From contig JBKBWQ010000001.1 of NCBI GenBank assembly GCA_046314355.1, positions 896,001 to 960,000 of the forward strand: a stretch of DNA of 64,000 bases, written 5' to 3'. The notes beneath the pieces are model-generated. The model was not told the origin of the DNA. It searched no databases and saw nothing but the letters and a program-made list of their open reading frames with translations. The position numbers and the translations under genes were made by a program. Positions 50,188-63,215 of the stretch are shown here, piece by piece. Numbering within the stretch: position 1 is the first letter of the stretch; every line of letters begins with the position of its first letter. The DNA comes from Candidatus Altimarinota bacterium. Lineage in GTDB: Bacteria > Patescibacteriota > Gracilibacteria > 1-14-2-50-48-13.

Positions 50188-53100
50188 TTATTGATTCTTC
50201 ACCTTCATACTTCGAGCAAGCATAAAGATAATCTCAGACTTCAACGCCTTATCATTCGGTCTAAAAAGCTTAGATTCAGATACGGTTACGATTCCCTTTT
50301 CAACCGCATAAGAAAGATATCCTTTGTACCAAGTATTCTCATCTTTCCAGCTTACATCCGTGAAAGGTTCAGCGCTGCCTGAGAAAGTAAATTTACCATC
50401 ACTCAGCGTCATCTCAAGGATTATCTTCAAAGCTTCGGCTCTTGTAATAGAATTATCAGGCTTGAAAGTACCATCATGGATATAACCCCGTACAATACTT
50501 CGAAGTTTTGCGAGATAAATAAAGAGTGCATCCTGATGAGTAATTGCTACATCTGAGAACGGTGCAGGAAATTCGGAATAGTTTCTAAAATCTTCACAGT
50601 TTCCCTGGATAATATAGCGAAGCATCTCAGATCTATTCACAGAAGCAGCTGGATCAAACACTTCTCCCTGTCTCTGGAAGGCTACTCCTTTTTTCAAAAG
50701 ATTTTCTATAAATATTTTCAGATCTTCCTGTGAAATACTCTCTGCAATCGCAGGATCCTGTGACTTCATCGGAGCACAGATAGTATCTTTGAACGGAATA
50801 TTAAATCTTCCCACTGGAGTATTTGGATTTACTACTTCAGGAGCGCTTGGTCTTGTAGGTGCAGTATTTCCATTTGTATTTCTTCCAGGAACAGAAGAAT
50901 TAGTATTAGCATTTTCACCTCTAGGTTCTACATTGGAATTCTGATTAGTAGTCGGCTGAATATTTGTATTCACATTCAGCTGCGCTACAGGAGTATATCC
51001 TCCACCTCCGCCGCCTGTCGTAGGTGCAGGACCAGCAGGAGGTACTGGAATAACAGTGTCTTCAATAGTAACCGTCAGATCCGGAATGCTCACTGTTGCA
51101 TATCCTTCATCCGTAGTAGTCAGCACATGTGAAATAGTCGCAGTACGGTTTCCATTCGCAGTATTATCATTTGTTATATTTAGAGTGACTATCTGCGGAA
51201 CATTCCAGTTACTTGAAGTAAAGGTAAGAGTTGCAGTATCTGCAATAATACCACCAGTAGTATTGATAGCTACTTCTACATCCGCAGTAGGAGCTTCAGT
51301 AAGAACAATACTATACGTATCTGTTCCCCCATCCTCTGTGATCAGAGTTGTACCTGATGTTTCAGTTATAACTGCATTAAGGTTATAAATAGCAGAAGTA
51401 GTCCATTGCTCTGTGCTTAGTCTTGAACTCTGGAGTGAAGATGGAAATGTTCCATACTCCTGCATCCAGACAAGTCCATCTCCTAATGATCCTGATGTAA
51501 GACTTGGCGCAGAGGCTGTAGAATCAGTCTGATATGCAATCCAGTAATCACCCGCTGGAAGTGAAGTTAGCGTCGTAGGGCTTCCATTAGCAACCGGTAC
51601 TGTTACCCATCCATTAGTTTTATTATTTGGTACTGATCCGCTTTCCCATAAAAGCTGCTTCTGATCGTCATAGAGTGCAAGTTCAATATTTCCGGCAGCA
51701 CTATGAGAATAAAATCGCAACGCATTTACAATACTTGCCGGTTGTGAAAGCGTCATTTTAGTAGCATGCACCATTCCCTTCTGAGAAAGTCCTATTCGAG
51801 TCACAAAAGCCGGATACGTATATGTACCTCCATAGATAAATCCACGCTCAGTATCTAACTGTAGATTATCAAGGGACTCAAGTTTAGGATCAAAGGAGAG
51901 TTCATTGATCTGCGTAAAATCACTAGTTTGTACTGTATGTAATTTTGCGGGCCAACCGGCTGCAAAATAAAGAAGTCCTTTCGCCGCATCTAAGGCTCCC
52001 ATGTATACAGGATTCTGAGGTTCACTGAGACGAATACTTGCGACCTTCGTAAAAGTTGCGAGGTCAATCTTGGCAACTTCACTTCCCAGATTTGTCCAGT
52101 GCTCTCCGGAAATGTATGCAATATTATTTGCCTCATCTATGACTACCGTATTTGTAGACTCCGTCGCTGCAGACAGAGTATCATCTATTTGTAGGGTATC
52201 TGCATCTACCTGGATAAAATCTCCTGAATCCTCATCTCCAAAATAGAGTTTCCCCGTTGTATTATTAATTCCTCCTCCGGTCCATCCCCATTGAGGTGTA
52301 TCTACAGTATCTACAACCGTAAATGTCTGAAGATCAATTTTTCCAATCCGTCCTACACTCTGATTCCATACATTATCTCTCGTTGCTCCATAGAGATAAG
52401 AGGTAGTACTGTCAAAGACAAGTCCATTTGTAAAGGCAGCATCTCCTGTATCCAAAACGGCTTCCTCCGTCATTGTCGCAGCATCTATTTTCAGCATCAC
52501 ATTCGGATATCCTGACCCATTAAAATTACGTCCCGCGATGTAAAGCTTATTTCTTATCGGATCAAAGATAATATTTGCATCAGAAGATGATCCAGGTGTT
52601 GTTCCGATAAACTGGTCAACATATTCAAAGGTCTTAGCATCGACCTTCATAATAGTAATATCCGAATCATTGTGATTGGTTTCTGTCACCACATAAAGAA
52701 ATCCTCCAACAGGATCATATGTACTAAATTTAGCAGCACCATCAGAAAGACCTATTTCATAGTGATCTTCGACAATAAGAGTATCAAGATCGATTATATC
52801 GAGATTATTACCTAATTGTACGTCTCCAGCAGTAAACATATGAATTGTCTTTGCTTGAGGTGCTTGAAAATATGAAATAAGACTCTGATCAAGTAATTCG
52901 ACATTCCCTATTGCATTCATGGCATCCACATCGATACCATATATTGCTGTCTCTTCAGGACTATTAAAAAACTGGGCAGTAACCAGATATATATTTTTGT
53001 CATCTTCTCCCTTAATAAAACTATTATAATAATGATCCGGAAGAGGATTAAAGTTAATTGTTCCTGCTTCTGTAAAGCTTCCAAGATCAATGACAGTGAC

Positions 53101-54216
53101 TTCACTAAAAAGACTACCTGTAGCGTATACGATACTCTGGTTATTATTTGCTAATGTAAAGATACCACTCGTGAACGCTTGGTAGTCTTGTGTAAGAGTG
53201 AGCGTATCTAGCACACTCATTGTATCAAGATCTATTGATTCCAGTTTTGTAGGAGCTGATCCACTCATGATGTATGCTTTTCCCTGCGTAAAATCAAATT
53301 CTGAATCTGCGTATGCACCATAGATATTTACACTTTGATCGACCGTCATTGTTGCAAGGTCCAGCTTCATCATGACAGGAACAGCATCATCAACCACAAT
53401 ATACATTTTCTGATCAGCAATATCGAAATCATAGGTTGTTGTAGCAGCAAATGCTGGACCAATAGGTAGAGTGGCAGTTACAGTAAAGTCAGAAAGACGA
53501 ATCTGCTTTAAGTAGACCTGATTACCCCAGGTAAAGTTTGCCGCATAGGCATATCCATTTGCTTCATCAAGAGTGTACTGTGAAAAACTGTTGCTGCCGT
53601 TGGGTACAGCTACTTGAGACTCAATAACCATGTCTGATAAACGTATTTTTAAAAATCTTCCTGTTGAGTTATTCACAGCAACATACGCATAAAGACCGTC
53701 TGCACTTATAGATGACTTTGAACTATATGAGGCAGCATTACTTATAGTAATGTTTGATACAAGCTCTAGATCAGAGAGTCGAATTTTTATAAAAGTTGTT
53801 TTACTGTTATTACCACCTACATAATATGCATACTCTTTCGCACTATCCATGAATCCAGAAATAAAATTTGACTCCGCATTATTATAATCATAGCTTTGTC
53901 TCTGGAGAATTTTTCCATCACTAATACGCATCTTAAGAATAGATGCAGGATTTGAGCCTGTAGCATAGTAGGCGGTATCATTATTTTCATCAAACAGTGC
54001 ACCTTCCATCTCTTCCCAGTATCCATTACTACTCATATAGTCAGTCTGACGAATACCTAAATTAGGATAGGTGTTCACACCGGGACTGAGCAATCCCTCT
54101 TCACTCGCTTGGACTAAAGAAAATGAACTGGGAGATATCATCAAAACAAGCAGTACCATACTGATGATCTTTTTTGCTTTCCCTAGAAAAAAGCTATGCG
54201 TGTTGGAGTTGTGCAT
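50188..54216 (-). CDS. Large surface protein: beta-propeller repeats, beta-sandwich, Calx-beta-like domain, C-terminal SLH
   Basis: Repeated KIxL.(D/T)F motifs; TEDGGTDTYSIVL ... WNVPQIVT; ITRAEALK. Confidence 0.8.
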   Translation of the reverse strand: MHNSNTHSFFLGKAKKIISMVLLVLMISPSSFSLVQASEEGLLSPGVNTYPNLGIRQTDYMSSNGYWEEMEGALFDENNDTAYYATGSNPASILKMRISDGKILQRQSYDYNNAESNFISGFMDSAKEYAYYVGGNNSKTTFIKIRLSDLELVSNITISNAASYSSKSSISADGLYAYVAVNNSTGRFLKIRLSDMVIESQVAVPNGSNSFSQYTLDEANGYAYAANFTWGNQVYLKQIRLSDFTVTATLPIGPAFAATTTYDFDIADQKMYIVVDDAVPVMMKLDLATMTVDQSVNIYGAYADSEFDFTQGKAYIMSGSAPTKLESIDLDTMSVLDTLTLTQDYQAFTSGIFTLANNNQSIVYATGSLFSEVTVIDLGSFTEAGTINFNPLPDHYYNSFIKGEDDKNIYLVTAQFFNSPEETAIYGIDVDAMNAIGNVELLDQSLISYFQAPQAKTIHMFTAGDVQLGNNLDIIDLDTLIVEDHYEIGLSDGAAKFSTYDPVGGFLYVVTETNHNDSDITIMKVDAKTFEYVDQFIGTTPGSSSDANIIFDPIRNKLYIAGRNFNGSGYPNVMLKIDAATMTEEAVLDTGDAAFTNGLVFDSTTSYLYGATRDNVWNQSVGRIGKIDLQTFTVVDTVDTPQWGWTGGGINNTTGKLYFGDEDSGDFIQVDADTLQIDDTLSAATESTNTVVIDEANNIAYISGEHWTNLGSEVAKIDLATFTKVASIRLSEPQNPVYMGALDAAKGLLYFAAGWPAKLHTVQTSDFTQINELSFDPKLESLDNLQLDTERGFIYGGTYTYPAFVTRIGLSQKGMVHATKMTLSQPASIVNALRFYSHSAAGNIELALYDDQKQLLWESGSVPNNKTNGWVTVPVANGSPTTLTSLPAGDYWIAYQTDSTASAPSLTSGSLGDGLVWMQEYGTFPSSLQSSRLSTEQWTTSAIYNLNAVITETSGTTLITEDGGTDTYSIVLTEAPTADVEVAINTTGGIIADTATLTFTSSNWNVPQIVTLNITNDNTANGNRTATISHVLTTTDEGYATVSIPDLTVTIEDTVIPVPPAGPAPTTGGGGGGYTPVAQLNVNTNIQPTTNQNSNVEPRGENANTNSSVPGRNTNGNTAPTRPSAPEVVNPNTPVGRFNIPFKDTICAPMKSQDPAIAESISQEDLKIFIENLLKKGVAFQRQGEVFDPAASVNRSEMLRYIIQGNCEDFRNYSEFPAPFSDVAITHQDALFIYLAKLRSIVRGYIHDGTFKPDNSITRAEALKIILEMTLSDGKFTFSGSAEPFTDVSWKDENTWYKGYLSYAVEKGIVTVSESKLFRPNDKALKSEIIFMLARSMKVKNQ

Positions 54217-54340: not shown

Positions 54341-54610
54341 TTATGCAGATGCTCTTAGTCCAAGCTCCTCTACAAGTTTCTTGTATGCCTCAACATCATT
54401 ATTCTTAAGATAGTTGAGAAGTCTTCGTCTCTTACCTACAAGCATATACAATCCTCTTCGAGAATGATTATCCTTCTTATGCATCTTAAGATGCTCAGTA
54501 AGGTGAGAAATTCGGTGGCTGATAATAGCTACCTGTACTTCAGCAGACCCGGTATCCTTCGCGTGCTGCTGATGCTTTTCAATAATAGATTTTTTCTGTG
54601 GCCTCTTCAT
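54341..54610 (-). CDS. rpsO: 30S ribosomal protein S15
   Basis: [10 protein letters not shown] ... [11 protein letters not shown] ... RRRLLNYL. Confidence 0.98.
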
Positions 54611-55917: not shown

Positions 55918-55992
55918 GGCCCCATCATCTAATGGTTAGGATAGAGCCCTCTCACGGCTCAAATCGGGGTTCGAATCCCCGTGGGGTCACCA
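55918..55992 (+). tRNA. tRNA-Glu (CTC)
   Basis: GGCCCCA acceptor stem, GAGCC-CT-CTC-AC-GGCTC anticodon arm, GGTTCGAATCC, CCA. Confidence 0.95.
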
Positions 55993-57634
55993 ACTGTGAC
56001 ACATTAGAACTAGAAATGTCCTTAAGCCTGAAGTATGGCTTTATTTTTGGTGTTCGAAACTGTATTTCCTGATATGTGGGAGGTGATGAAAACAAAACCT
56101 TAAATAATGGACCGTAGAGAGGCGCATTTTCTTTTTGGGCAAAGATATTAGGAAGGTGTTCGAAGAATTTGTTAGAGAAAGAAATAAGCTCATCTAATTC
56201 CCTCTCACTTAAGTGATCTTCCTCTTTTTGTTTGATAAGGGATTTTTTTTGATTATCTATCTCTTCTATTTTATCTTCAATCATCTTTAGTACAGTAGGA
56301 TTTGAAAGATTCATAAGTTTATTAAATAAACTAACCCGAGTAAGTTCTAACTCCTGTTGGGTATTCTCATAATATTCTTTACTCTTACGTGAGTCTTCAG
56401 TCTTACGTTTCCATACCTTACGCAGTGAGTAATTAAGTACCATAAAATCTATCTTAGTAAAGTTAAGAGATTCAAAGTACTTAAGGATTTCTTTTTCAAA
56501 TGTATCTTTAGAAATACGGAGGAGTTTATGATTTCTATTACAATGATATGCTGGATACCTTGTTCCTGATTTACCTGTTGATGCACTTGCATGAAAAGGT
56601 TTCTGGCACTCAGGACATAAAACTATATTCTTATAGGGATATAGCTCATTTTCTCGCGTCTTTTTCTTAGGAAAGAATTTTGGATCAGTGATAAGTTCAA
56701 TAGTCTTATCTTCATGTAATACTAATATTCTTTTTCCATCCTGTGCAGTATTCCATTGCTCTATACTAATTAGTCCTTCAAATTGAGCTAATACAGGTTT
56801 GTACCATGTCCATTGCTCACATATAATTCCTGCATAAATAGGACGAGAAAGGTATCTTTGAAGTTGTTTAACTTTTAGTTTTGCACCCCCTCTTTGTCCT
56901 TTAATAGTACCTGTTTGCTTATCTCTCACATAGAAGATTCTGCTCTTGTATCCAAGATTATTTACTATTTCTACAATTTGCTTATCCGTATTAATTCCCG
57001 TAGTTTTTAAGTCAAAAATTTTTTTGATGTAATAAGCTTCTGATTCAAGTGGAATAAGTATTGTAACCTTCTGTCCATATTCGTTATATTTTTTTGTAGA
57101 TGCTAAACCATAAGGAGGATTTCTCATCCATAAACCTGATTTTGTTGCAGCAATTTCCGCACCAATAGTACGACATAGTATATTTTTTCTTTCATTTTCA
57201 CTTTCAATAGCTTTTTGTACCTCAGCAGTTTGGCTTGGAGAAATAAGACTCCACGAATAAGACGTACCCAAATGAGCTAGTGCATTTACTTCAGGTTGAA
57301 CAATACTAGTGACGTCAATAATAACTATACCCATTTCTTTGAGCTGATCTTTTATCCTTGTATATCCTCCAACCCCCTCTCTACTCAATCTATCTATAGC
57401 TCTTACAAAAACAGCACTAATATTGTTTTCTTTATTTTTACAAAAAGTTAAAAGATCATTTAGTCGTGGGCGGTCTGATATAGTACCTGTAATAACATCT
57501 GCAAATATAGACTTTATTTCGTATTCTAATTCTTTTGCCTTATAATTACATGCGTTTATTTGATCATTAGTAGAATTCCCTTCCTGATTCTGCTTATCTG
57601 TAGAAACCCGTGCATAGATAACAGCATTTTTCAT
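55952..57634 (-). CDS. Large serine recombinase (resolvase, recombinase, zinc ribbon, coiled coil); C-terminus read antisense through tRNA-Glu
   Basis: YARVST, DRLSR, PPYG, CPEC ... YHC; ends SQLVTPRGFEPRFEP*. Confidence 0.92.
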   Translation of the reverse strand: MKNAVIYARVSTDKQNQEGNSTNDQINACNYKAKELEYEIKSIFADVITGTISDRPRLNDLLTFCKNKENNISAVFVRAIDRLSREGVGGYTRIKDQLKEMGIVIIDVTSIVQPEVNALAHLGTSYSWSLISPSQTAEVQKAIESENERKNILCRTIGAEIAATKSGLWMRNPPYGLASTKKYNEYGQKVTILIPLESEAYYIKKIFDLKTTGINTDKQIVEIVNNLGYKSRIFYVRDKQTGTIKGQRGGAKLKVKQLQRYLSRPIYAGIICEQWTWYKPVLAQFEGLISIEQWNTAQDGKRILVLHEDKTIELITDPKFFPKKKTRENELYPYKNIVLCPECQKPFHASASTGKSGTRYPAYHCNRNHKLLRISKDTFEKEILKYFESLNFTKIDFMVLNYSLRKVWKRKTEDSRKSKEYYENTQQELELTRVSLFNKLMNLSNPTVLKMIEDKIEEIDNQKKSLIKQKEEDHLSERELDELISFSNKFFEHLPNIFAQKENAPLYGPLFKVLFSSPPTYQEIQFRTPKIKPYFRLKDISSSNVSQLVTPRGFEPRFEP

Positions 57635-57649
57635 ACTCAAAGTACAATA

Positions 57650-57787
57650 TTATGATTTCTTAAAAGCCTCATAAACAATTTCAGCCAATACTTCAAAATC
57701 ACTTAGCATAAGTGAAATTTGTTCCTCTGTAAGTCCCTTCTTTGTTAAATAATCCTTTATAAGGATTTCTTCATTCATGTGTTCCAT
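57650..57787 (-). CDS. 45-aa small protein upstream of the recombinase (not in ORF track)
   Basis: MEHMNEEILIKDYLTKKGLTEEQISLMLSDFEVLAEIVYEAFKKS*. Confidence 0.55.
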   Translation of the reverse strand: MEHMNEEILIKDYLTKKGLTEEQISLMLSDFEVLAEIVYEAFKKS

Positions 57788-57869
57788 AGTTCAGGTAAGA
57801 TTCACCTGAACTATAGAGAAGACTTTTACAGAAGTTTCAGAACTTTAGATTTAATCTAAAAAATAATAA

Positions 57870-58553
57870 CTACATTAACTTCTTATTAACGAGCGTTGAA
57901 TAAAGCCTAATACTGTTAATCTGTTTCTCAATTTCCTTCACTTCTTTATAAATTATTGTTTCAATACTTGAATAATTCTTTTTAATTTCAAACTCCTTAT
58001 AAATATATTCCAATGCAGTCTTCATAGTCATTCCACCATTCTTTAATTGATATGCACGCAATGCAATATCAAAGCTTCTTCCTTTATCCCATATACGAGT
58101 ATCAAAGAAAAAATGCTGTATGAGTTTTTTCTGCTCATCAATCTCTTTCCACATTTTCCTAAATTCTACACTTGTAATATCGTATGGTACTTGAAGTGTC
58201 ACATAAGGGACCATAGAGGCTACAGGGGCAATAGAAGCTGTACCATTGCCATTGTAACTTGTAGTAGTGAGATGAGTTACAGTATTCAGCACTATTCTTT
58301 CTGGATATTCAGCAATCCTTTTACTCAATAGAGAATAAAAGAACTTGGGTATGTAAAACTCTTTAGCTAACTCAAGAAAAGCTGAAGAAGTTTGATCTAT
58401 CATAAGAGCCTGATCTACTAACCTAAAGTTATACAGTTCCCTATTTTTGAAGCACTTATTCATAGCACTCTCAAAGAGCTTACTCTTATAGAAGAGAGTT
58501 TTGAGATAGATGAATGCACTTCCTCGGGAAACAGATACTATTTTCTTAGACAT
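57870..58553 (-). CDS. Hypothetical protein, possible C-terminal HTH
   Basis: DIALRAYQLKNGGMTMKTALEYI. Confidence 0.6.
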   Translation of the reverse strand: MSKKIVSVSRGSAFIYLKTLFYKSKLFESAMNKCFKNRELYNFRLVDQALMIDQTSSAFLELAKEFYIPKFFYSLLSKRIAEYPERIVLNTVTHLTTTSYNGNGTASIAPVASMVPYVTLQVPYDITSVEFRKMWKEIDEQKKLIQHFFFDTRIWDKGRSFDIALRAYQLKNGGMTMKTALEYIYKEFEIKKNYSSIETIIYKEVKEIEKQINSIRLYSTLVNKKLM

Positions 58554-58598
58554 AAAGATAAGTCAAATGAAGCTGTATTAAATAATTATACATTATTA

Positions 58599-58907
58599 CT
58601 AAAATTTACATTGATAAACCTTTGCATCTTTAGGTTTCTCACAAGAAAAAGAATTTGATTTTTCTATTCCTAAATCAGTCTTGGAATAAAAATTACCTTT
58701 TCTTATTTCAGTATCACCTGACTTTGATGAAGAACAAGCACCCATTCTAAGAGTACTAGGATTTTTTACGACCATATTTATTTGAAACATTACTGGCTCA
58801 CAAGGATTCCCTAGTTTATTTGGTAGGAAGAAAATACCCAGTGATACACAAAGAAATAAGGCAAGAATACCCATACCCACTAATGGGTCCGCAAAGTTGA
58901 TTTTCAT
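58599..58907 (-). CDS. Small secreted/membrane protein with four Cys
   Basis: MKINFADPLVG-TM; follows a structured leader/ncRNA. Confidence 0.55.
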   Translation of the reverse strand: MKINFADPLVGMGILALFLCVSLGIFFLPNKLGNPCEPVMFQINMVVKNPSTLRMGACSSSKSGDTEIRKGNFYSKTDLGIEKSNSFSCEKPKDAKVYQCKF

Positions 58908-58941
58908 GTTAGAGAATGTAACATAAATAAATAGAGAACTG

Positions 58942-59091
58942 CAAAAAGGGACAACCCTCAACAGATTCTCCCAACTCTAGGTCCCATTTCGGGCTATGAT
59001 GCTGGCTGATGAGAGGTGCCCCTCAGTGTTCAGCATGCACAGCCAATAACTACAAAAGTAGTATTTTAATGGTTTCCTAGTTGGGAGAATA
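58942..59091 (-). ncRNA. Candidate structured ncRNA or leader (~150 nt)
   Basis: Closing stem 58965-58981/59076-59090, internal hairpins, promoter TTGATC-16-TATACT, terminator-like AGGG-TTGT-CCCT-TTTT. Confidence 0.55.
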
Positions 59092-59224
59092 CTTGGAGTA
59101 TATAGAAAAACCTATCAAGATCAAGCCTAGAGTCAATCACTATAATTCTAAGGAATTTGATAGTCTTTTTTCTGTCACACGTTACAATTCAAATATTATC
59201 TATGATTCATATTAAAAATTATCT

Positions 59225-60172
59225 ATGAAACTTACAGCAAAACTACCTATTAATTTATCTATTCTCGAAGGAAGTACTTATAAAAAAGATATCTACATGG
59301 ATTTTATAAATAGAAAAGTTTTGGTAACGACTACCATAAATTTTGAGCTTAATAAAGAACATACTCAGGAAGCATATAATGTAGGCTTCTTTAATGATGA
59401 TAAAAGCCTAATGGGACAAACAATATTTGAGATAGATGTCGACTTAACAGAAGAGGAAGAAAAATTATTTGAAACTGAGAGATTCAATAAGATAGGATTT
59501 GATGCAAAAATATTTACTTCAGTAGTGAATGAATTAATTGATTTATATAGGTATAAATCTAAACATTGGTGGATTGAACGTATTTATGAAGATCATATAA
59601 AAGATATATTAGTATCATATAAATATAGTAACTTTATGACCGAGGGAGGTTTTGAAGGAGTATACTCTTCAGACCCTAAAGAAAGAGATAGACTTAAAAA
59701 TAGTATCTCTAATGCCTACCTTCAGAATCAGGAAATTCCTATATTCCTTGAATATCTATTACTTGCTAATAAATATCTCCATTACAAACGGTATGACTTA
59801 GTATCTGTTAATATAAATATTGCACTGGAGAGCTTAATTTACTTAATTTCAAAAGAAGTATTAGGTGATGAACGACATGAAAAATTAGTAGAAGGAGAGC
59901 TATGTAAATGCTGTGAAAGACGAATATACCCAAACTTAAATAAGATTACATCAGAAATAGATACGATACTTCATTATGATCACGATGTTAATAAAGATTT
60001 ATTAAAGAAGATTCAACGACCAAAGGATAGTACACTTAGAAATGATATTACACACGGGCATGTAGTATTTTTAAGCAGGAGTCTGAAGTATGAAGAACAT
60101 GCAAATTTACAGTATGACTCTTTTATAAAGCTTATGAAAATTTACAAGATACAAATAAGTGAATACCTCTAA
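59225..60172 (+). CDS. Putative HEPN-domain (ApeA-like) protein
   Basis: IALES helix and C-terminal RNDITH (R-x4-H). Confidence 0.6.
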   Translation: MKLTAKLPINLSILEGSTYKKDIYMDFINRKVLVTTTINFELNKEHTQEAYNVGFFNDDKSLMGQTIFEIDVDLTEEEEKLFETERFNKIGFDAKIFTSVVNELIDLYRYKSKHWWIERIYEDHIKDILVSYKYSNFMTEGGFEGVYSSDPKERDRLKNSISNAYLQNQEIPIFLEYLLLANKYLHYKRYDLVSVNINIALESLIYLISKEVLGDERHEKLVEGELCKCCERRIYPNLNKITSEIDTILHYDHDVNKDLLKKIQRPKDSTLRNDITHGHVVFLSRSLKYEEHANLQYDSFIKLMKIYKIQISEYL

Positions 60173-60240
60173 TTATTCAAATATAGAATTCAGTACTTAA
60201 ATTTCTTTCTATCATTGATGTAGTATGTTTATATAAAACA

Positions 60241-61020
60241 TTATTCATTAAGCTTATACTTAGTTTGAAGCCGAAAAGTACCAAAAAATTTAATAAATTC
60301 TTCTTTATTTGTATCTATTAATGTGAATAGAGATATTTTCTCATCACTTTTGCATGTTAGTACCTGAATAGTATTTTCTAACATATTTAGAAGAAATACT
60401 GATTTTTGCATTATTCTTTCCCAATTAAAATAAATATAATTTTGAATAATCAGATTTTTTTTGAAATCCTTAGAATAGTACGAAAAAGATGAATTAAAAT
60501 TATTTAACTGAAATGATTCACCCTTATCAGATTGTAGATTTATCACTCCTCCTTGTGAACTTACCATCCTAAATCCATGCTTAAATGCATTGAGTAATTC
60601 AAAGTCTTTTAAATAATCATGAGATATTTCTGATAAGATTGAAAAGTATAAACTTTTCTTTCGATCAAAGTTTTCAATTAGACTTTTATCATTTACACCA
60701 AACACCCAGTTATTAAAGAAATATTTTGTAAATTTATAATAGTTCTTTCTTTCAAGTACTAAATTCAATCTCTTTCTTAGTTGGTTATTACTTAAAAAAA
60801 GATTATTCCACAAATCATTTTCAGTAATAGTAAAAATGTTAATCCAAAAGACTTCTACTAGCTGTAGATGCGTAGTATAAAGTCTTACAGTCCATATCTT
60901 ACGATCTTTTTCGGAGCATGTTTGGAGCTTTTCACTATATAAGTCTAGTGATTCATTCCAACTGGAGAGATCAAAATGTTCGTAATACTCCTTAATACTC
61001 ATTGGAAGCAATTCATCCAT
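60241..61020 (-). CDS. Hypothetical protein, weak HEPN-like motif
   Basis: LNAFKHG. Confidence 0.55.
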   Translation of the reverse strand: MDELLPMSIKEYYEHFDLSSWNESLDLYSEKLQTCSEKDRKIWTVRLYTTHLQLVEVFWINIFTITENDLWNNLFLSNNQLRKRLNLVLERKNYYKFTKYFFNNWVFGVNDKSLIENFDRKKSLYFSILSEISHDYLKDFELLNAFKHGFRMVSSQGGVINLQSDKGESFQLNNFNSSFSYYSKDFKKNLIIQNYIYFNWERIMQKSVFLLNMLENTIQVLTCKSDEKISLFTLIDTNKEEFIKFFGTFRLQTKYKLNE

Positions 61021-61028
61021 AATTTTCG

Positions 61029-61832
61029 TTAGTTTGTCTGAAGTAATATCTGTCCTGAACCATTTAGTTGAGTATTCATTAATAGACTCTTTATCTTTAT
61101 TTGCTCTTGTTTCAGAGCCTCATTCTCTACTTTTAGTTCGTTCATTTCTAAACTAGTAGAATTTTTCATTTGTTCTAATGTCTTAATTCTATTTTGTTGT
61201 TCAATAAATGAAGCGTTATTCTCAATAACAGCTGGATTATTTTTATCTCCAAATGCTAATATAACTGCCCCTAGTAGGATTAACAACAGAGCACCAAATA
61301 AAAATTTAATAATTTCTTCAGGTATCTTAGCCAGTTTCTTACCTTTAATCCAAAACTCAGTTATTAATAGCGATAGTAATACTAGAAAAACTATCCCCCC
61401 AAGCATGATAATAGTTAATCCTCCAATACGCCAAAAATCTGTTACTGCTTTCAGTATCTGAACTTCTATGGAAAAAAATGTAAAGATTGCTACAAAAATA
61501 CCAAGCAGTTCAATCACTCGAATTTTATCATTTTCAATACTATCTTTTTGCTTTTTTAATTCTTGCTTAAATTTTTTATCTTGTATTATTAGAGCTTTGT
61601 CTAATTCAGCTTTAACTTCATTTAGTCTATCTTCTAAATCTCTAATTGCTTTAAGTTTTTCCTGAGTAAGTTGACCAAAAACTGCTTCAATCTTTAATAA
61701 GCTATCTCTCTCAGTTGTAGAAAGAAGAACTCCTGAAGCAATCAGCGTAGGATTTGCAGAATTACCAGAAATCAAGCGATTAGGAGAATTAGGAGATGTG
61801 CCTGCACCAATTATAGGATTGAGCTGAGTCAT
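61029..61832 (-). CDS. Coiled-coil plus 3-TM membrane protein
   Basis: IELLGIFVAIFTFFS TM cluster flanked by coiled coils. Confidence 0.65.
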   Translation of the reverse strand: MTQLNPIIGAGTSPNSPNRLISGNSANPTLIASGVLLSTTERDSLLKIEAVFGQLTQEKLKAIRDLEDRLNEVKAELDKALIIQDKKFKQELKKQKDSIENDKIRVIELLGIFVAIFTFFSIEVQILKAVTDFWRIGGLTIIMLGGIVFLVLLSLLITEFWIKGKKLAKIPEEIIKFLFGALLLILLGAVILAFGDKNNPAVIENNASFIEQQNRIKTLEQMKNSTSLEMNELKVENEALKQEQIKIKSLLMNTQLNGSGQILLQTN

Positions 61833-61837
61833 AATTG

Positions 61838-62635
61838 CTATACTGTTAAATCAGAAGCTGACACTTTATCGGCGGTCTCGGTAGTTGTAGAAGAGTTTTG
61901 AATTGCTTTAACAAAATCAATACTTTCTTTATCTGTATTATCTAGGAAAGTTAAAAATTCTTTTTCTAAAGTAAGCTTTAGATCATCAGTTGGGAAAGTA
62001 TTTATATCAGTAGATAACAACATCAATCTTTTATTATCAGTTGCTGATACAATCCCAGTATTAACTAAATGAGATTTATTAATAAGAACTTCTTTATCAC
62101 CCCAATTAGTTTTACTCTTAGTTAGAAAGTTTAAGGAAATCTCAGAGTCATCATCAAAAGTTATTGGAAGGTTACTATCGTTAAAGATAAATTTTATTCT
62201 TTCATTTCTATTTTGTATATTATGAGAAATATAAGATGAAATGTAACCTAAATTTTTTATACTTAATTCTTGTTTATTTATAAAATTGAACAGTAACGTA
62301 ACTTTATCACGAAAGTCTTTTTTATAATTTGTTTCATTATCAGGTTGATCTTTTACTGTACTGATATTTTCTTCTAACTCTAGTTTATTACTACTATAAG
62401 TAAAAAAATAATTTATATCTAATCTATCCCTTGTTACCTTAAATTCAAAAGTATTTGGTTTGCTAATTATTAACCGAGGAACTTCAGGTGCAACATCATC
62501 AGGTAGAGGTAATAATAATGGTTTCATCTCATCAAATATAGAGATAAAGTCTGATATATATCTGTCAATTGGAAGAGAGTATATATCTAAAAAGAAAATT
62601 AGTTGTAATGAGGCTAGTCGAAATTCTTCCTTCAT
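61838..62635 (-). CDS. Hypothetical protein (TIGR04255-like)
   Basis: LPLPDDVAPEVPRLII ... RLDI ... DINT. Confidence 0.55.
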   Translation of the reverse strand: MKEEFRLASLQLIFFLDIYSLPIDRYISDFISIFDEMKPLLLPLPDDVAPEVPRLIISKPNTFEFKVTRDRLDINYFFTYSSNKLELEENISTVKDQPDNETNYKKDFRDKVTLLFNFINKQELSIKNLGYISSYISHNIQNRNERIKFIFNDSNLPITFDDDSEISLNFLTKSKTNWGDKEVLINKSHLVNTGIVSATDNKRLMLLSTDINTFPTDDLKLTLEKEFLTFLDNTDKESIDFVKAIQNSSTTTETADKVSASDLTV

Positions 62636-62801
62636 AATATATAGCTTTATATAATTGCATTTATTGAGAACACCCTAGCATAAGAATATATAAATTCATA
62701 CAGAATTTTAGCTATGAGAATGTAAATCTATACATATCTAATATGACCTATTGCTCTCATATCCTCAACAAAAGAGTTCCAACTTACATCCAGTTGGCTC
62801 A

Positions 62802-62950
62802 CCATTCTTCGCTTCTCACGAAGCTACGAATGGCACGGCCAGAATGGAATGAATCTTCGCAAGCGAAGATTTTATAATATATAGCGAAGAATGTCCCTCG
62901 TAGCCTACTCAAAACTGTAAGTTGCTTGTTCATTGTGGCGTAGAGGGATG
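62802..62950 (+). repeat. Multi-hairpin element, likely the native tRNA-Glu trailer displaced by the island
   Basis: CCATTC ... GAATGG-CACGGCC; AATCTTCGC-AA-GCGAAGATT; TCCCTC ... GAGGGA. Confidence 0.6.
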
Positions 62951-63215
62951 CCCAATCATAAAGCATTGATGTATTTTTGTACCCTGATGAGTCTATCACA
63001 GTTCTTTTTATAATATACACCGTAAAAAAATTTATCCCTAACTACTAAGTACCCCCACTATCACTCACACTCTGAGCCCTCAGAACACTACTCCCCACAC
63101 GTCCCCTCTTTTAAAAACTCCTTTGTTTTTAATCTGGCTATGCTATACTTCCCCTGTCAAGATACAAACAAATGGTAGAGAAATACCCTCTTACGTTCTC
63201 ACGCCATACTACTAC

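Follow-up and report, generated by a model that had tools for sequence, protein, structure and literature searches.

A tRNA-Glu-integrated element of a Candidatus Altimarinota bacterium whose large serine integrase gene contains its own attP and may change its C-terminus with the state of the element

Attachment sites which lie inside the integrase gene, with a C-terminus altered by integration, are already known for tyrosine integrases. SSV1-type fuselloviruses of archaea carry attP within the gene of a tyrosine integrase, and integration at a tRNA gene splits this gene near its N-terminus. Phage Mx8 targets a tRNA-Asp gene. According to one report (PMC6070905), the attP of Mx8 lies inside int, and the recombinant int which arises on integration has another 3' end and changed properties. 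In the mycobacteriophage BPs and its relatives attP is placed inside the repressor gene, and integration into a tRNA gene removes the C-terminal part of the repressor and changes its behaviour (PMC9934374). The present analysis concerns a 64,000-nucleotide (nt) stretch, called the window, of a Candidatus Altimarinota genome (G000, 1.69 Mb in 28 contigs; the window lies on contig C1), in which an integrative element of about 6.8 kb stands at the 3' end of a tRNA-Glu(CTC) gene. The gene of its large serine integrase (int) runs over the boundary of the element and ends in the antisense strand of the tRNA gene, and the attP obtained by joining the two ends of the element lies inside int. What appears to be new here is that such an arrangement belongs to a serine integrase, and that it is found as a trait of a clade.

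The locus resembles Mx8 in that int itself contains attP, so that the protein is changed by integration. Mx8 differs in being one phage with a tyrosine recombinase and large arm-type attachment sites, whereas here a large serine recombinase with a core of 5-8 nt is concerned, a small conserved helix is swapped and the layout is met across a whole clade. With SSV1 the locus shares attP in int and a gene split at a tRNA; the SSV1 system is archaeal and uses a tyrosine enzyme split at the N-terminal side, in contrast to the loss of a short C-terminal tail seen here. The window integrase appears to work like the Mx8 and SSV1 kind and is not a member of it, because it has the catalytic domain of serine recombinases and not tyrosine chemistry. 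The BPs systems differ in that it is the repressor which loses its tail, this tail being a degradation tag, and in that their integrases belong to the tyrosine recombinases. With the serine integrases of phiC31, Bxb1, SPbeta (SprA) and A118/LI the window protein shares the domain order of catalytic domain, recombinase domain and zinc ribbon with an inserted coiled coil and, as a prediction, a small cofactor which binds near the base of the coiled coil. To our knowledge, attP of these four lies outside the int open reading frame (ORF), and their targets are protein-coding genes and not tRNA ends. Another large serine recombinase, TnpX of Tn4451/Tn4453, has its expression tied to the state of the element, since the circular junction creates a promoter; there, however, the promoter is changed and not the protein. 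The open-access literature searched (supplementary files left aside) gave no case of a serine integrase with attP within its gene.

The two TCACCA cores which bound the element (Table 1) are 6812 nt apart, which gives an island of 6812 bp at 55993-62804. Directly after it, at 62805, begins one copy of a repeat of about 280 nt, present in at least 13 copies in the source genome. In all 12 other copies, full or partial, the repeat starts immediately after the CCA of a tRNA gene, and it is carried by 12 of the 39 tRNA genes of the genome. The tRNA-Glu(CTC) gene is without the repeat and its paralogue tRNA-Glu(TTC) has it; at the paralogous tRNA-Glu(TTC) and tRNA-Arg(CCT) genes ggTCACCA is followed by the repeat, which is the form expected of an empty site. 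Because the repeat from 62805 directly follows the CCA of 12 other tRNA genes, the ancestral site is taken to be tRNA-Glu followed by the repeat. GC content is 0.24-0.35 in the island against 0.36-0.41 in the flanks. The repeat junctions, the empty-like paralogous sites and the GC drop thus define the island as 55993-62804, an integrative element put at the 3' end of tRNA-Glu(CTC) by a large serine recombinase. The boundaries had been drawn in the same way in an earlier note on this DNA, and the repeat family and the GC drop speak for them, the right boundary included. In a search for an orthologous empty site the right-flank DNA gave no usable match in 40 related genomes, and therefore the boundary rests on the paralogous tRNA-repeat junctions of the same genome. 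Among sequencing runs only one hot-spring metagenome run, probably of the source sample, matched the stretch; its contigs hold the integrated form only, at even depth, with no circle-junction or empty-site contig, contigs being a form of the data from which rare variants are dropped.

In the integrated state the last 41 nt of int, stop codon included, are the antisense of the 3' half of the tRNA gene, so that residues 552-562 and the stop are tRNA-derived and the protein ends in TPRGFEPRFEP, as the earlier note had read. When 62798/62799 is joined to 55993 a perfect 7-bp inverted repeat, CAGTTGG/CCAACTG, arises with a 4-nt spacer, and outer half-sites AGTTCnAA are found at 62775-62782 and, as the complement, at 56004-56011. 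The centre of the dyad falls between G and A of TGGTGA in the orientation of int, and the crossover dinucleotide is likely TC at 55987-55988 (tRNA positions 71-72); with this crossover the element would supply the discriminator base and CCA. This dinucleotide is proposed for the window only, because the dyad centres are inconsistent across the reconstructed attPs. The join at the core keeps the reading frame and gives a 574-amino-acid (aa) protein with a 23-aa tail, a junction after codon 551 and a stop at 62728-62730. All sequence statements made before hold, among them those on the dyad, the half-sites and the frame-keeping join of an attP inside the 3' end of int. The rejoined protein can be aligned beyond its junction, to residue 568 with the relative P0002 and to residue 566 with P0004. 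On a profile of 8 natural uninterrupted tails the reconstructed tail scores 9.9 bits, a value which is reached or exceeded by 2 of 3852 control joins.

Full-length homologs found by protein search number 11, at 27-39% identity. Their alignment is conserved up to a common point, after which two kinds of tail follow, a short one like tRNA antisense and a longer one with the residues W-N. Both kinds recur among the homolog C-termini when these are aligned in the manner the earlier note had asked for, and the W-N tail proposed for the excised form proves conserved among relatives both by alignment and by tail profile. The refutation tests of the earlier note on the right boundary and on the tail were both passed. 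In genome contigs 279 of 312 pattern matches encode relatives, in metagenome contigs 403 of 441; the best 80 of each were used, those from genomes being nearly all metagenome-assembled genomes (MAGs) of the candidate phyla radiation (CPR)/Patescibacteria. The same loci stand in both sets (L106/L014, L107/L035, L117/L024 and L175/L074, among others), and the sets are therefore not independent. The ORF crosses the 3' end of an antisense tRNA gene in 68 of the 80 genome loci and 65 of the 80 metagenome loci, a layout seen in 133/160 loci. The contig ends at the ORF end in 5 and 4 loci respectively, a W-N tail without a tRNA is found in 4 and 8, and another class takes 3 in each set. In the genome set the target is tRNA-Glu in 49 loci, tRNA-Lys in 6, tRNA-Arg in 5, tRNA-Leu in 3 and tRNA-Gln, -Trp, -Phe, -Gly and -Val in one locus each, and across Glu, Lys, Arg, Trp and other targets the junction lies at one alignment position. 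The stop stands 12 codons past the tRNA end in 41 of 67 countable genome loci, and in most tRNA-Glu cases it lies in the anticodon loop. As judged from these sequences, the attP-in-int layout is a family trait of a mostly CPR-borne integrase clade. A census of 120 proteins of at least 535 aa gave 57 with the (ad hoc) tRNA-antisense-tail pattern, 18 with at least 8 bits on the natural-tail profile, 1 with both and 44 with neither; this is a rough picture only, as 5 of the 18 profile matches are training rows or copies, and many of the 44, when inspected by eye, resemble weaker W-N tails or a tRNA antisense strand read in a different frame.

The far ends of other elements were sought with the profile of the 8 natural tails, on which all in-frame joins between a tRNA end and any 5-mer match in up to 10 kb of upstream DNA were scored; a first profile, trained on joins chosen by the pattern W-[NKWD] and holding one doubtful row (L067), was replaced by it. 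At least 10 bits were reached by 9 of 951 upstream same-strand joins, in 8 loci (L024, L040, L060, L064, L068, L079, L088 and L090), against 0/990, 2/1374 and 0/1488 control joins on the wrong strand or the wrong side, and three more loci (L057, L019 and L026) have joins at 8-9 bits. Two loci which were extended with more DNA were also resolved: L045, where the element measures about 22.6 kb and spans the record's origin of a complete genome of Saccharibacteria, and L037, of about 17.7 kb. A far end whose join recreates the W-N tail was thus found in 13 loci. The cores of these elements are 5-8 nt long and start at the tRNA 3' end, and the sizes, L045 and L037 apart, are 3.2-11 kb. The orphan stubs of L045 and L037 differ with a non-synonymous rate (dN) of 0.128 and a synonymous rate (dS) of 1.03 over 43 codons (int body: dN 0.075, dS 1.94); as dN is well under dS, the stub is kept as coding sequence.

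Two loci can be compared directly. The int gene of L035 is intact and ends in a W-N tail, on a contig which carries no tRNA gene, and that of L014 runs into tRNA-Glu; the proteins are 97.6% identical over 553 aa and the DNA 92.4% over 3814 nt, with a match that stops at the shared core. By this sequence identity one integrase lineage is seen in both states, and the proposal that integrated and excised states encode two C-termini is borne out by this pair and by the computed join. A DNA similarity search with the post-junction DNA of L035 had no useful match in four related genomes, and it was the protein profile which led to the stubs. The DNA of L035 (G041:C6, 28.6 kb) is also present on the 74-kb metagenome contig L107, and its neighbours, judged from the starts of their translations alone, would code for a cytochrome bd oxidase, a P-type ATPase and type IV secretion-like proteins. 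The intact-attP form of L035 may be a larger conjugative element or a plasmid.

That the ORF is a large serine recombinase (LSR), as had been proposed, was confirmed. A Resolvase catalytic domain (PF00239, E 2.9e-17) covers residues 6-112 and a phrog_95 integrase match (E 1.2e-44) residues 147-482, while R11, S13, Q17, C342, C345 and C367 are invariant in a 12-sequence alignment (A1) and H366 is nearly so. Zn_ribbon_recom (PF13408) scored 21.4 bits, under its cut-off of 25.3; the Recombinase domain PF07508 is precomputed for 5 of 11 close homologs, and the window protein gave no match to it at an E value of 0.01 or lower. The protein has the catalytic domain, the recombinase domain (DBD1) and the zinc ribbon (DBD2) with a coiled coil which mark this class. 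By sequence, solved chains match it in the catalytic domain only, the best being TP901-1 (E 5.5e-15). The nearest phage records are about 25% identical, the phage collection holds no close relative and the plasmid collection gave no matches.

The structure of the tail was approached by an AlphaFold2 (AF2) model of a natural relative, P0028 (mean predicted local distance difference test, pLDDT, 87.1; predicted template modelling score, pTM, 0.51). The model has long paired helices at 405-453 and 457-481, forming the coiled coil, and a helix at 567-583 which begins at W-N, with mean pLDDT of 72 at residues 561-570 and 88 at 571-580. It aligns with the SPbeta integrase 9dxh_A (Z 14.9, root-mean-square deviation (rmsd) 15.9, 462 aligned, model residues 6-548) and with Bxb1 9iu2_A (Z 14.7, rmsd 20.1, 424 aligned, model residues 8-553). 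Since the alignment with the full-length SPbeta, Bxb1 and phiC31 integrases ends at about 548-553, the W-N tail is an extension past the usual C-terminus of LSRs. In the SPbeta integrase, according to one preprint, the extreme C-terminus contacts the recombination directionality factor (RDF), and it is counted, after Abe et al. 2021, as part of a 'toggle switch' tied to the control of direction (bioRxiv 10.1101/2025.01.03.631226).

A 45-aa ORF directly upstream of int deserves special attention. No Pfam, PHROG or PADLOC family was recognised for it, and jackhmmer started from the window ORF alone found only itself. A profile built on five relatives detects clear members of the family immediately upstream of int in 13 loci, among which are the five of the profile, and reaches the window ORF at E 4.9e-3; many other loci have a short ORF which by eye looks related and carries an acidic helix motif of a similar kind. 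The members are small helical proteins of 45-77 aa which always stand beside this integrase, directly upstream of int in L012-L091. The complex model of Int with the 45-aa protein scores 0.65 versus 0.06 for the best of 3 controls. This mark is attained in 58 of 80 cases for solved complexes and in 2 of 110 for mismatched pairs; because own alignments were used, the counts apply here only roughly. The runs share at least 83% of contacts, the pLDDT of the partner is at least 73, and the predicted interface takes in Int residues 397-413, 475-516, 534 and 536. These lie at the coiled-coil base and on the helices which follow it, and the interface ends a few residues short of the junction at 551. 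The predicted binding place of the 45-aa protein on the integrase, the coiled-coil base, is also the one used by known directionality factors, and the protein is a candidate RDF. The premise that the element has no separate directionality factor, on which the earlier note had leaned, is weakened and has become unsafe, because this conserved ORF stands upstream of int and its product is predicted to bind Int.

Table 1. Features of the element and of its borders in the window
Feature	Position	Strand	Remarks
tRNA-Glu(CTC)	55918..55992	+	Intact, CCA encoded; ARAGORN, Rfam RF00005 (59.4 bits); attB-derived side of attL
int, integrated isoform, 562 aa	55952..57640	-	ORF; large serine recombinase
attL core TCACCA	55987..55992		Last two acceptor-stem bases, discriminator A and CCA; from sequence
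P' arm of attP	55993..56013		Also codes about residues 544-551 of Int; inverted repeat with 62775-62798
Terminator-like hairpin and T-run	56024..56051	+	32 nt past the tRNA, within int on its antisense strand
45-aa ORF directly upstream of int	57650..57787	-	Family search, alignment A2, complex model; candidate factor
Cargo, five larger ORFs	57870..62635		57870-58553 (-), 59225-60172 (+), 60241-61020 (-), 61029-61832 (-), 61838-62635 (-)
Orphan tail stub	62728..62798	-	Last 23 codons of excised-form int with W-N motif, stop 62728-62730; no in-frame start codon of its own
P arm of attP	62775..62798		Inverted-repeat partner of the P' arm
attR core TCACCA	62799..62804		From sequence
Host tRNA-trailer repeat	62805..63085	+	13th genome copy, the sole copy severed from a tRNA; old downstream flank of tRNA-Glu

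The remaining features of the locus can be described briefly. No Pfam, PHROG or PADLOC family was recognised in the cargo ORFs. The hairpin within int may mark the end of tRNA transcription; one terminator-like hairpin was found where 1.1 were expected, which is not significant alone. The other repeat copies stand on contig C1 at 92102, 206251, 366219, 403184, 540980, 602111, 726826, 1107328, 1170611, 1311873, 1354435 and 1483919. In the repeat, CCA with TTC is pairable with a downstream GAATGG, then a hairpin with a T-run follows, and then about 200 conserved nt. No Rfam family matched it, and its predicted fold has covariation at 1 of 49 pairs in 5 copies, which are too alike to show covariation; the repeat could be a tRNA trailer, a co-transcribed RNA or a mobile repeat targeting tRNA genes. 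A second trailer family, consisting of an A/T hairpin and then a GAGTA..TTAGTA..TAGTACTT motif, stands downstream of about 10 other tRNA genes (on C1 at 527955, 586823, 692535, 721743, 1009005, 1085917, 1142579 and 1224310, for example), and near some of its members the 280-nt repeat is partially matched in its 3' part. To the left of the element 50188-54216 (-) encodes a 1342-aa protein with many beta-propeller-like repeats and with C-terminal repeats which look S-layer-homology-like by eye; an rpsO-like gene at 54341-54610 adjoins it.

Signs of tandem or remnant elements were noticed among the relatives: an attR flank resembling the end of another int (L040:4640-4670), an orphan W-N stub 3.5 kb upstream of an intact int (L059:6440-6560) and 76 nt of the int 3' end which are found again 1.3 kb downstream of the gene (L125:5402-5477). 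A 763-aa ORF in L079 (7516-9807), with a primase-polymerase-like N-terminus and a helicase part by eye, points to autonomous replication of some of these elements.

In this anatomy the P' arm codes the last conserved residues of Int, the core TCACCA mimics the acceptor end of the tRNA with its CCA, and the P arm encodes a predicted C-terminal helix opening with the conserved W-N. As attP lies within the 3' end of int, integration cuts the gene after codon 551. The int body gains 11 antisense-tRNA codons and a TGA stop from the anticodon loop, the helix-coding stub is left 6.8 kb away at attR, and the tRNA gene stays whole, its ACCA end being probably supplied by the element. Excision would rejoin body and helix into the 574-aa protein. 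In the preferred mechanism full-length Int would perform attP x attB integration, the tail-less Int of the integrated element together with the 45-aa protein would perform attL x attR excision, and the int gene's own state would help to set the direction of recombination. The isoforms would differ in activity, as we infer, and act as a built-in directionality switch. An attP-in-int element at tRNA-Glu, with state-dependent isoforms of differing activity which help to set direction, is the best explanation overall, and a probability of about 0.6 can be given to it. One further step is rather doubtful at present, namely that the W-N helix is a cis-acting part of the switch which in the free element lies on or beside the cofactor surface at the coiled-coil base and holds the enzyme in integration mode even in the presence of the cofactor, its removal by integration opening the way to cofactor-responsive excision.

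Several observations weigh against the explanation as a whole. A clear dyad with the same centre is present in only 1 of 11 other scored attPs (L090). The match of the window tail to the tail profile, 9.9 bits, is weak, and shuffle tests against single natural tails were mixed (0, 13, 7, 21, 60, 65, 467 and 933 of 2000 shuffles reach the observed score). The invariance of W-N in alignment A3 exists partly by construction, because its rows were chosen for such tails. For 56 of 67 loci the upstream DNA searched, up to 10 kb, showed no far end, only 2 of these 56 having been followed further. At L059, L074 and L081, on long chromosomal contigs (172 kb, 264 kb and 5.9 Mb, respectively), the ORF keeps its W-N tail and does not end at a tRNA gene; a copy with the tail can therefore reside in a chromosome, and the tail is not always lost on integration, unless these copies became fixed or were integrated by another route. 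No free circular form was seen in viral contigs (where no relatives were found), in source-run contigs or in the W-N contigs checked. Terminal overlap is absent from the 6 W-N metagenome contigs held whole (L103, L104, L105, L108, L125 and L163), of which L103, L104 and L105 are the same linear stretch and not circular permutations; the 28.6-kb contig of L035 likewise has no terminal overlap and no tRNA. As for the candidate cofactor, LSR-RDF complexes were solved in 2026 and likeness to them may raise the complex score.

Among other explanations the one which survives best regards the layout as a by-product of compaction, where attP overlaps the 3' end of int only because the copy of the tRNA end must lie near int. 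The tail would serve the free form in folding or stability, its loss would have no regulatory meaning, and direction would be set wholly by a small cofactor, as in ordinary serine integrases. A conserved candidate cofactor with predicted binding to Int does exist, as do chromosomal relatives with intact tails, and the residues gained from the tRNA are dictated by its sequence, with the stop mostly in the anticodon loop for tRNA-Glu; nevertheless, the junction keeps the same alignment position across different tRNA targets, the layout persists through the 133 loci, the tail is under purifying selection even as an orphan stub, and it sits where the C-terminus of the SPbeta integrase is reported to touch the RDF. 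This explanation is held to be unlikely, though it deserves consideration. It is also conceivable, but quite improbable, that the tail is needed for any recombination, so that integration inactivates the enzyme and stabilises the insertion, with excision rare or dependent on read-through, a helper element or a second integrase. Integrated forms do far outnumber intact ones among relatives, and there is a precedent in Mx8, where integration alters the int 3' end and the properties of the enzyme (PMC6070905). The stubs, however, are open and conserved in the 13 reconstructed elements, which fits lineages cycling through an excised form; the small cofactor gene is kept beside int in integrated copies, and the truncated protein still spans all that aligns with full-length solved LSRs. 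A purely accidental TCACCA pair and open frame, with a meaningless run of the ORF into the tRNA gene and no real element, can practically be discarded, for although TCACCA by itself is no commoner in the window than chance predicts (17 matches versus 26.5 expected), the boundary of the repeat family, the GC drop, the family-wide recurrence, the L035/L014 pair and the control joins all contradict it.

Irrespective of the switch, serine integrases targeting the CCA end of tRNA genes are shown here, and a widespread family of small integrative elements in CPR bacteria is identified, for which a simple rule gives both ends: the tRNA 3' end, then an in-frame W-N stub. The choice between integration and excision is a central question for serine integrases and for their use in genome writing. 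In this clade the two states of the element encode isoforms which form natural pairs, one with a short C-terminal helix and one lacking it, and a 45-aa candidate cofactor goes with them; with three small constructs and four short DNA sites the role of the extreme C-terminus can be tested directly. If the W-N helix is indeed a cis-acting part of the switch, the reading frame of int would store the state of the element, and it could be said that a serine integrase has a self-resetting, DNA-encoded memory, conserved across a large clade of CPR elements.

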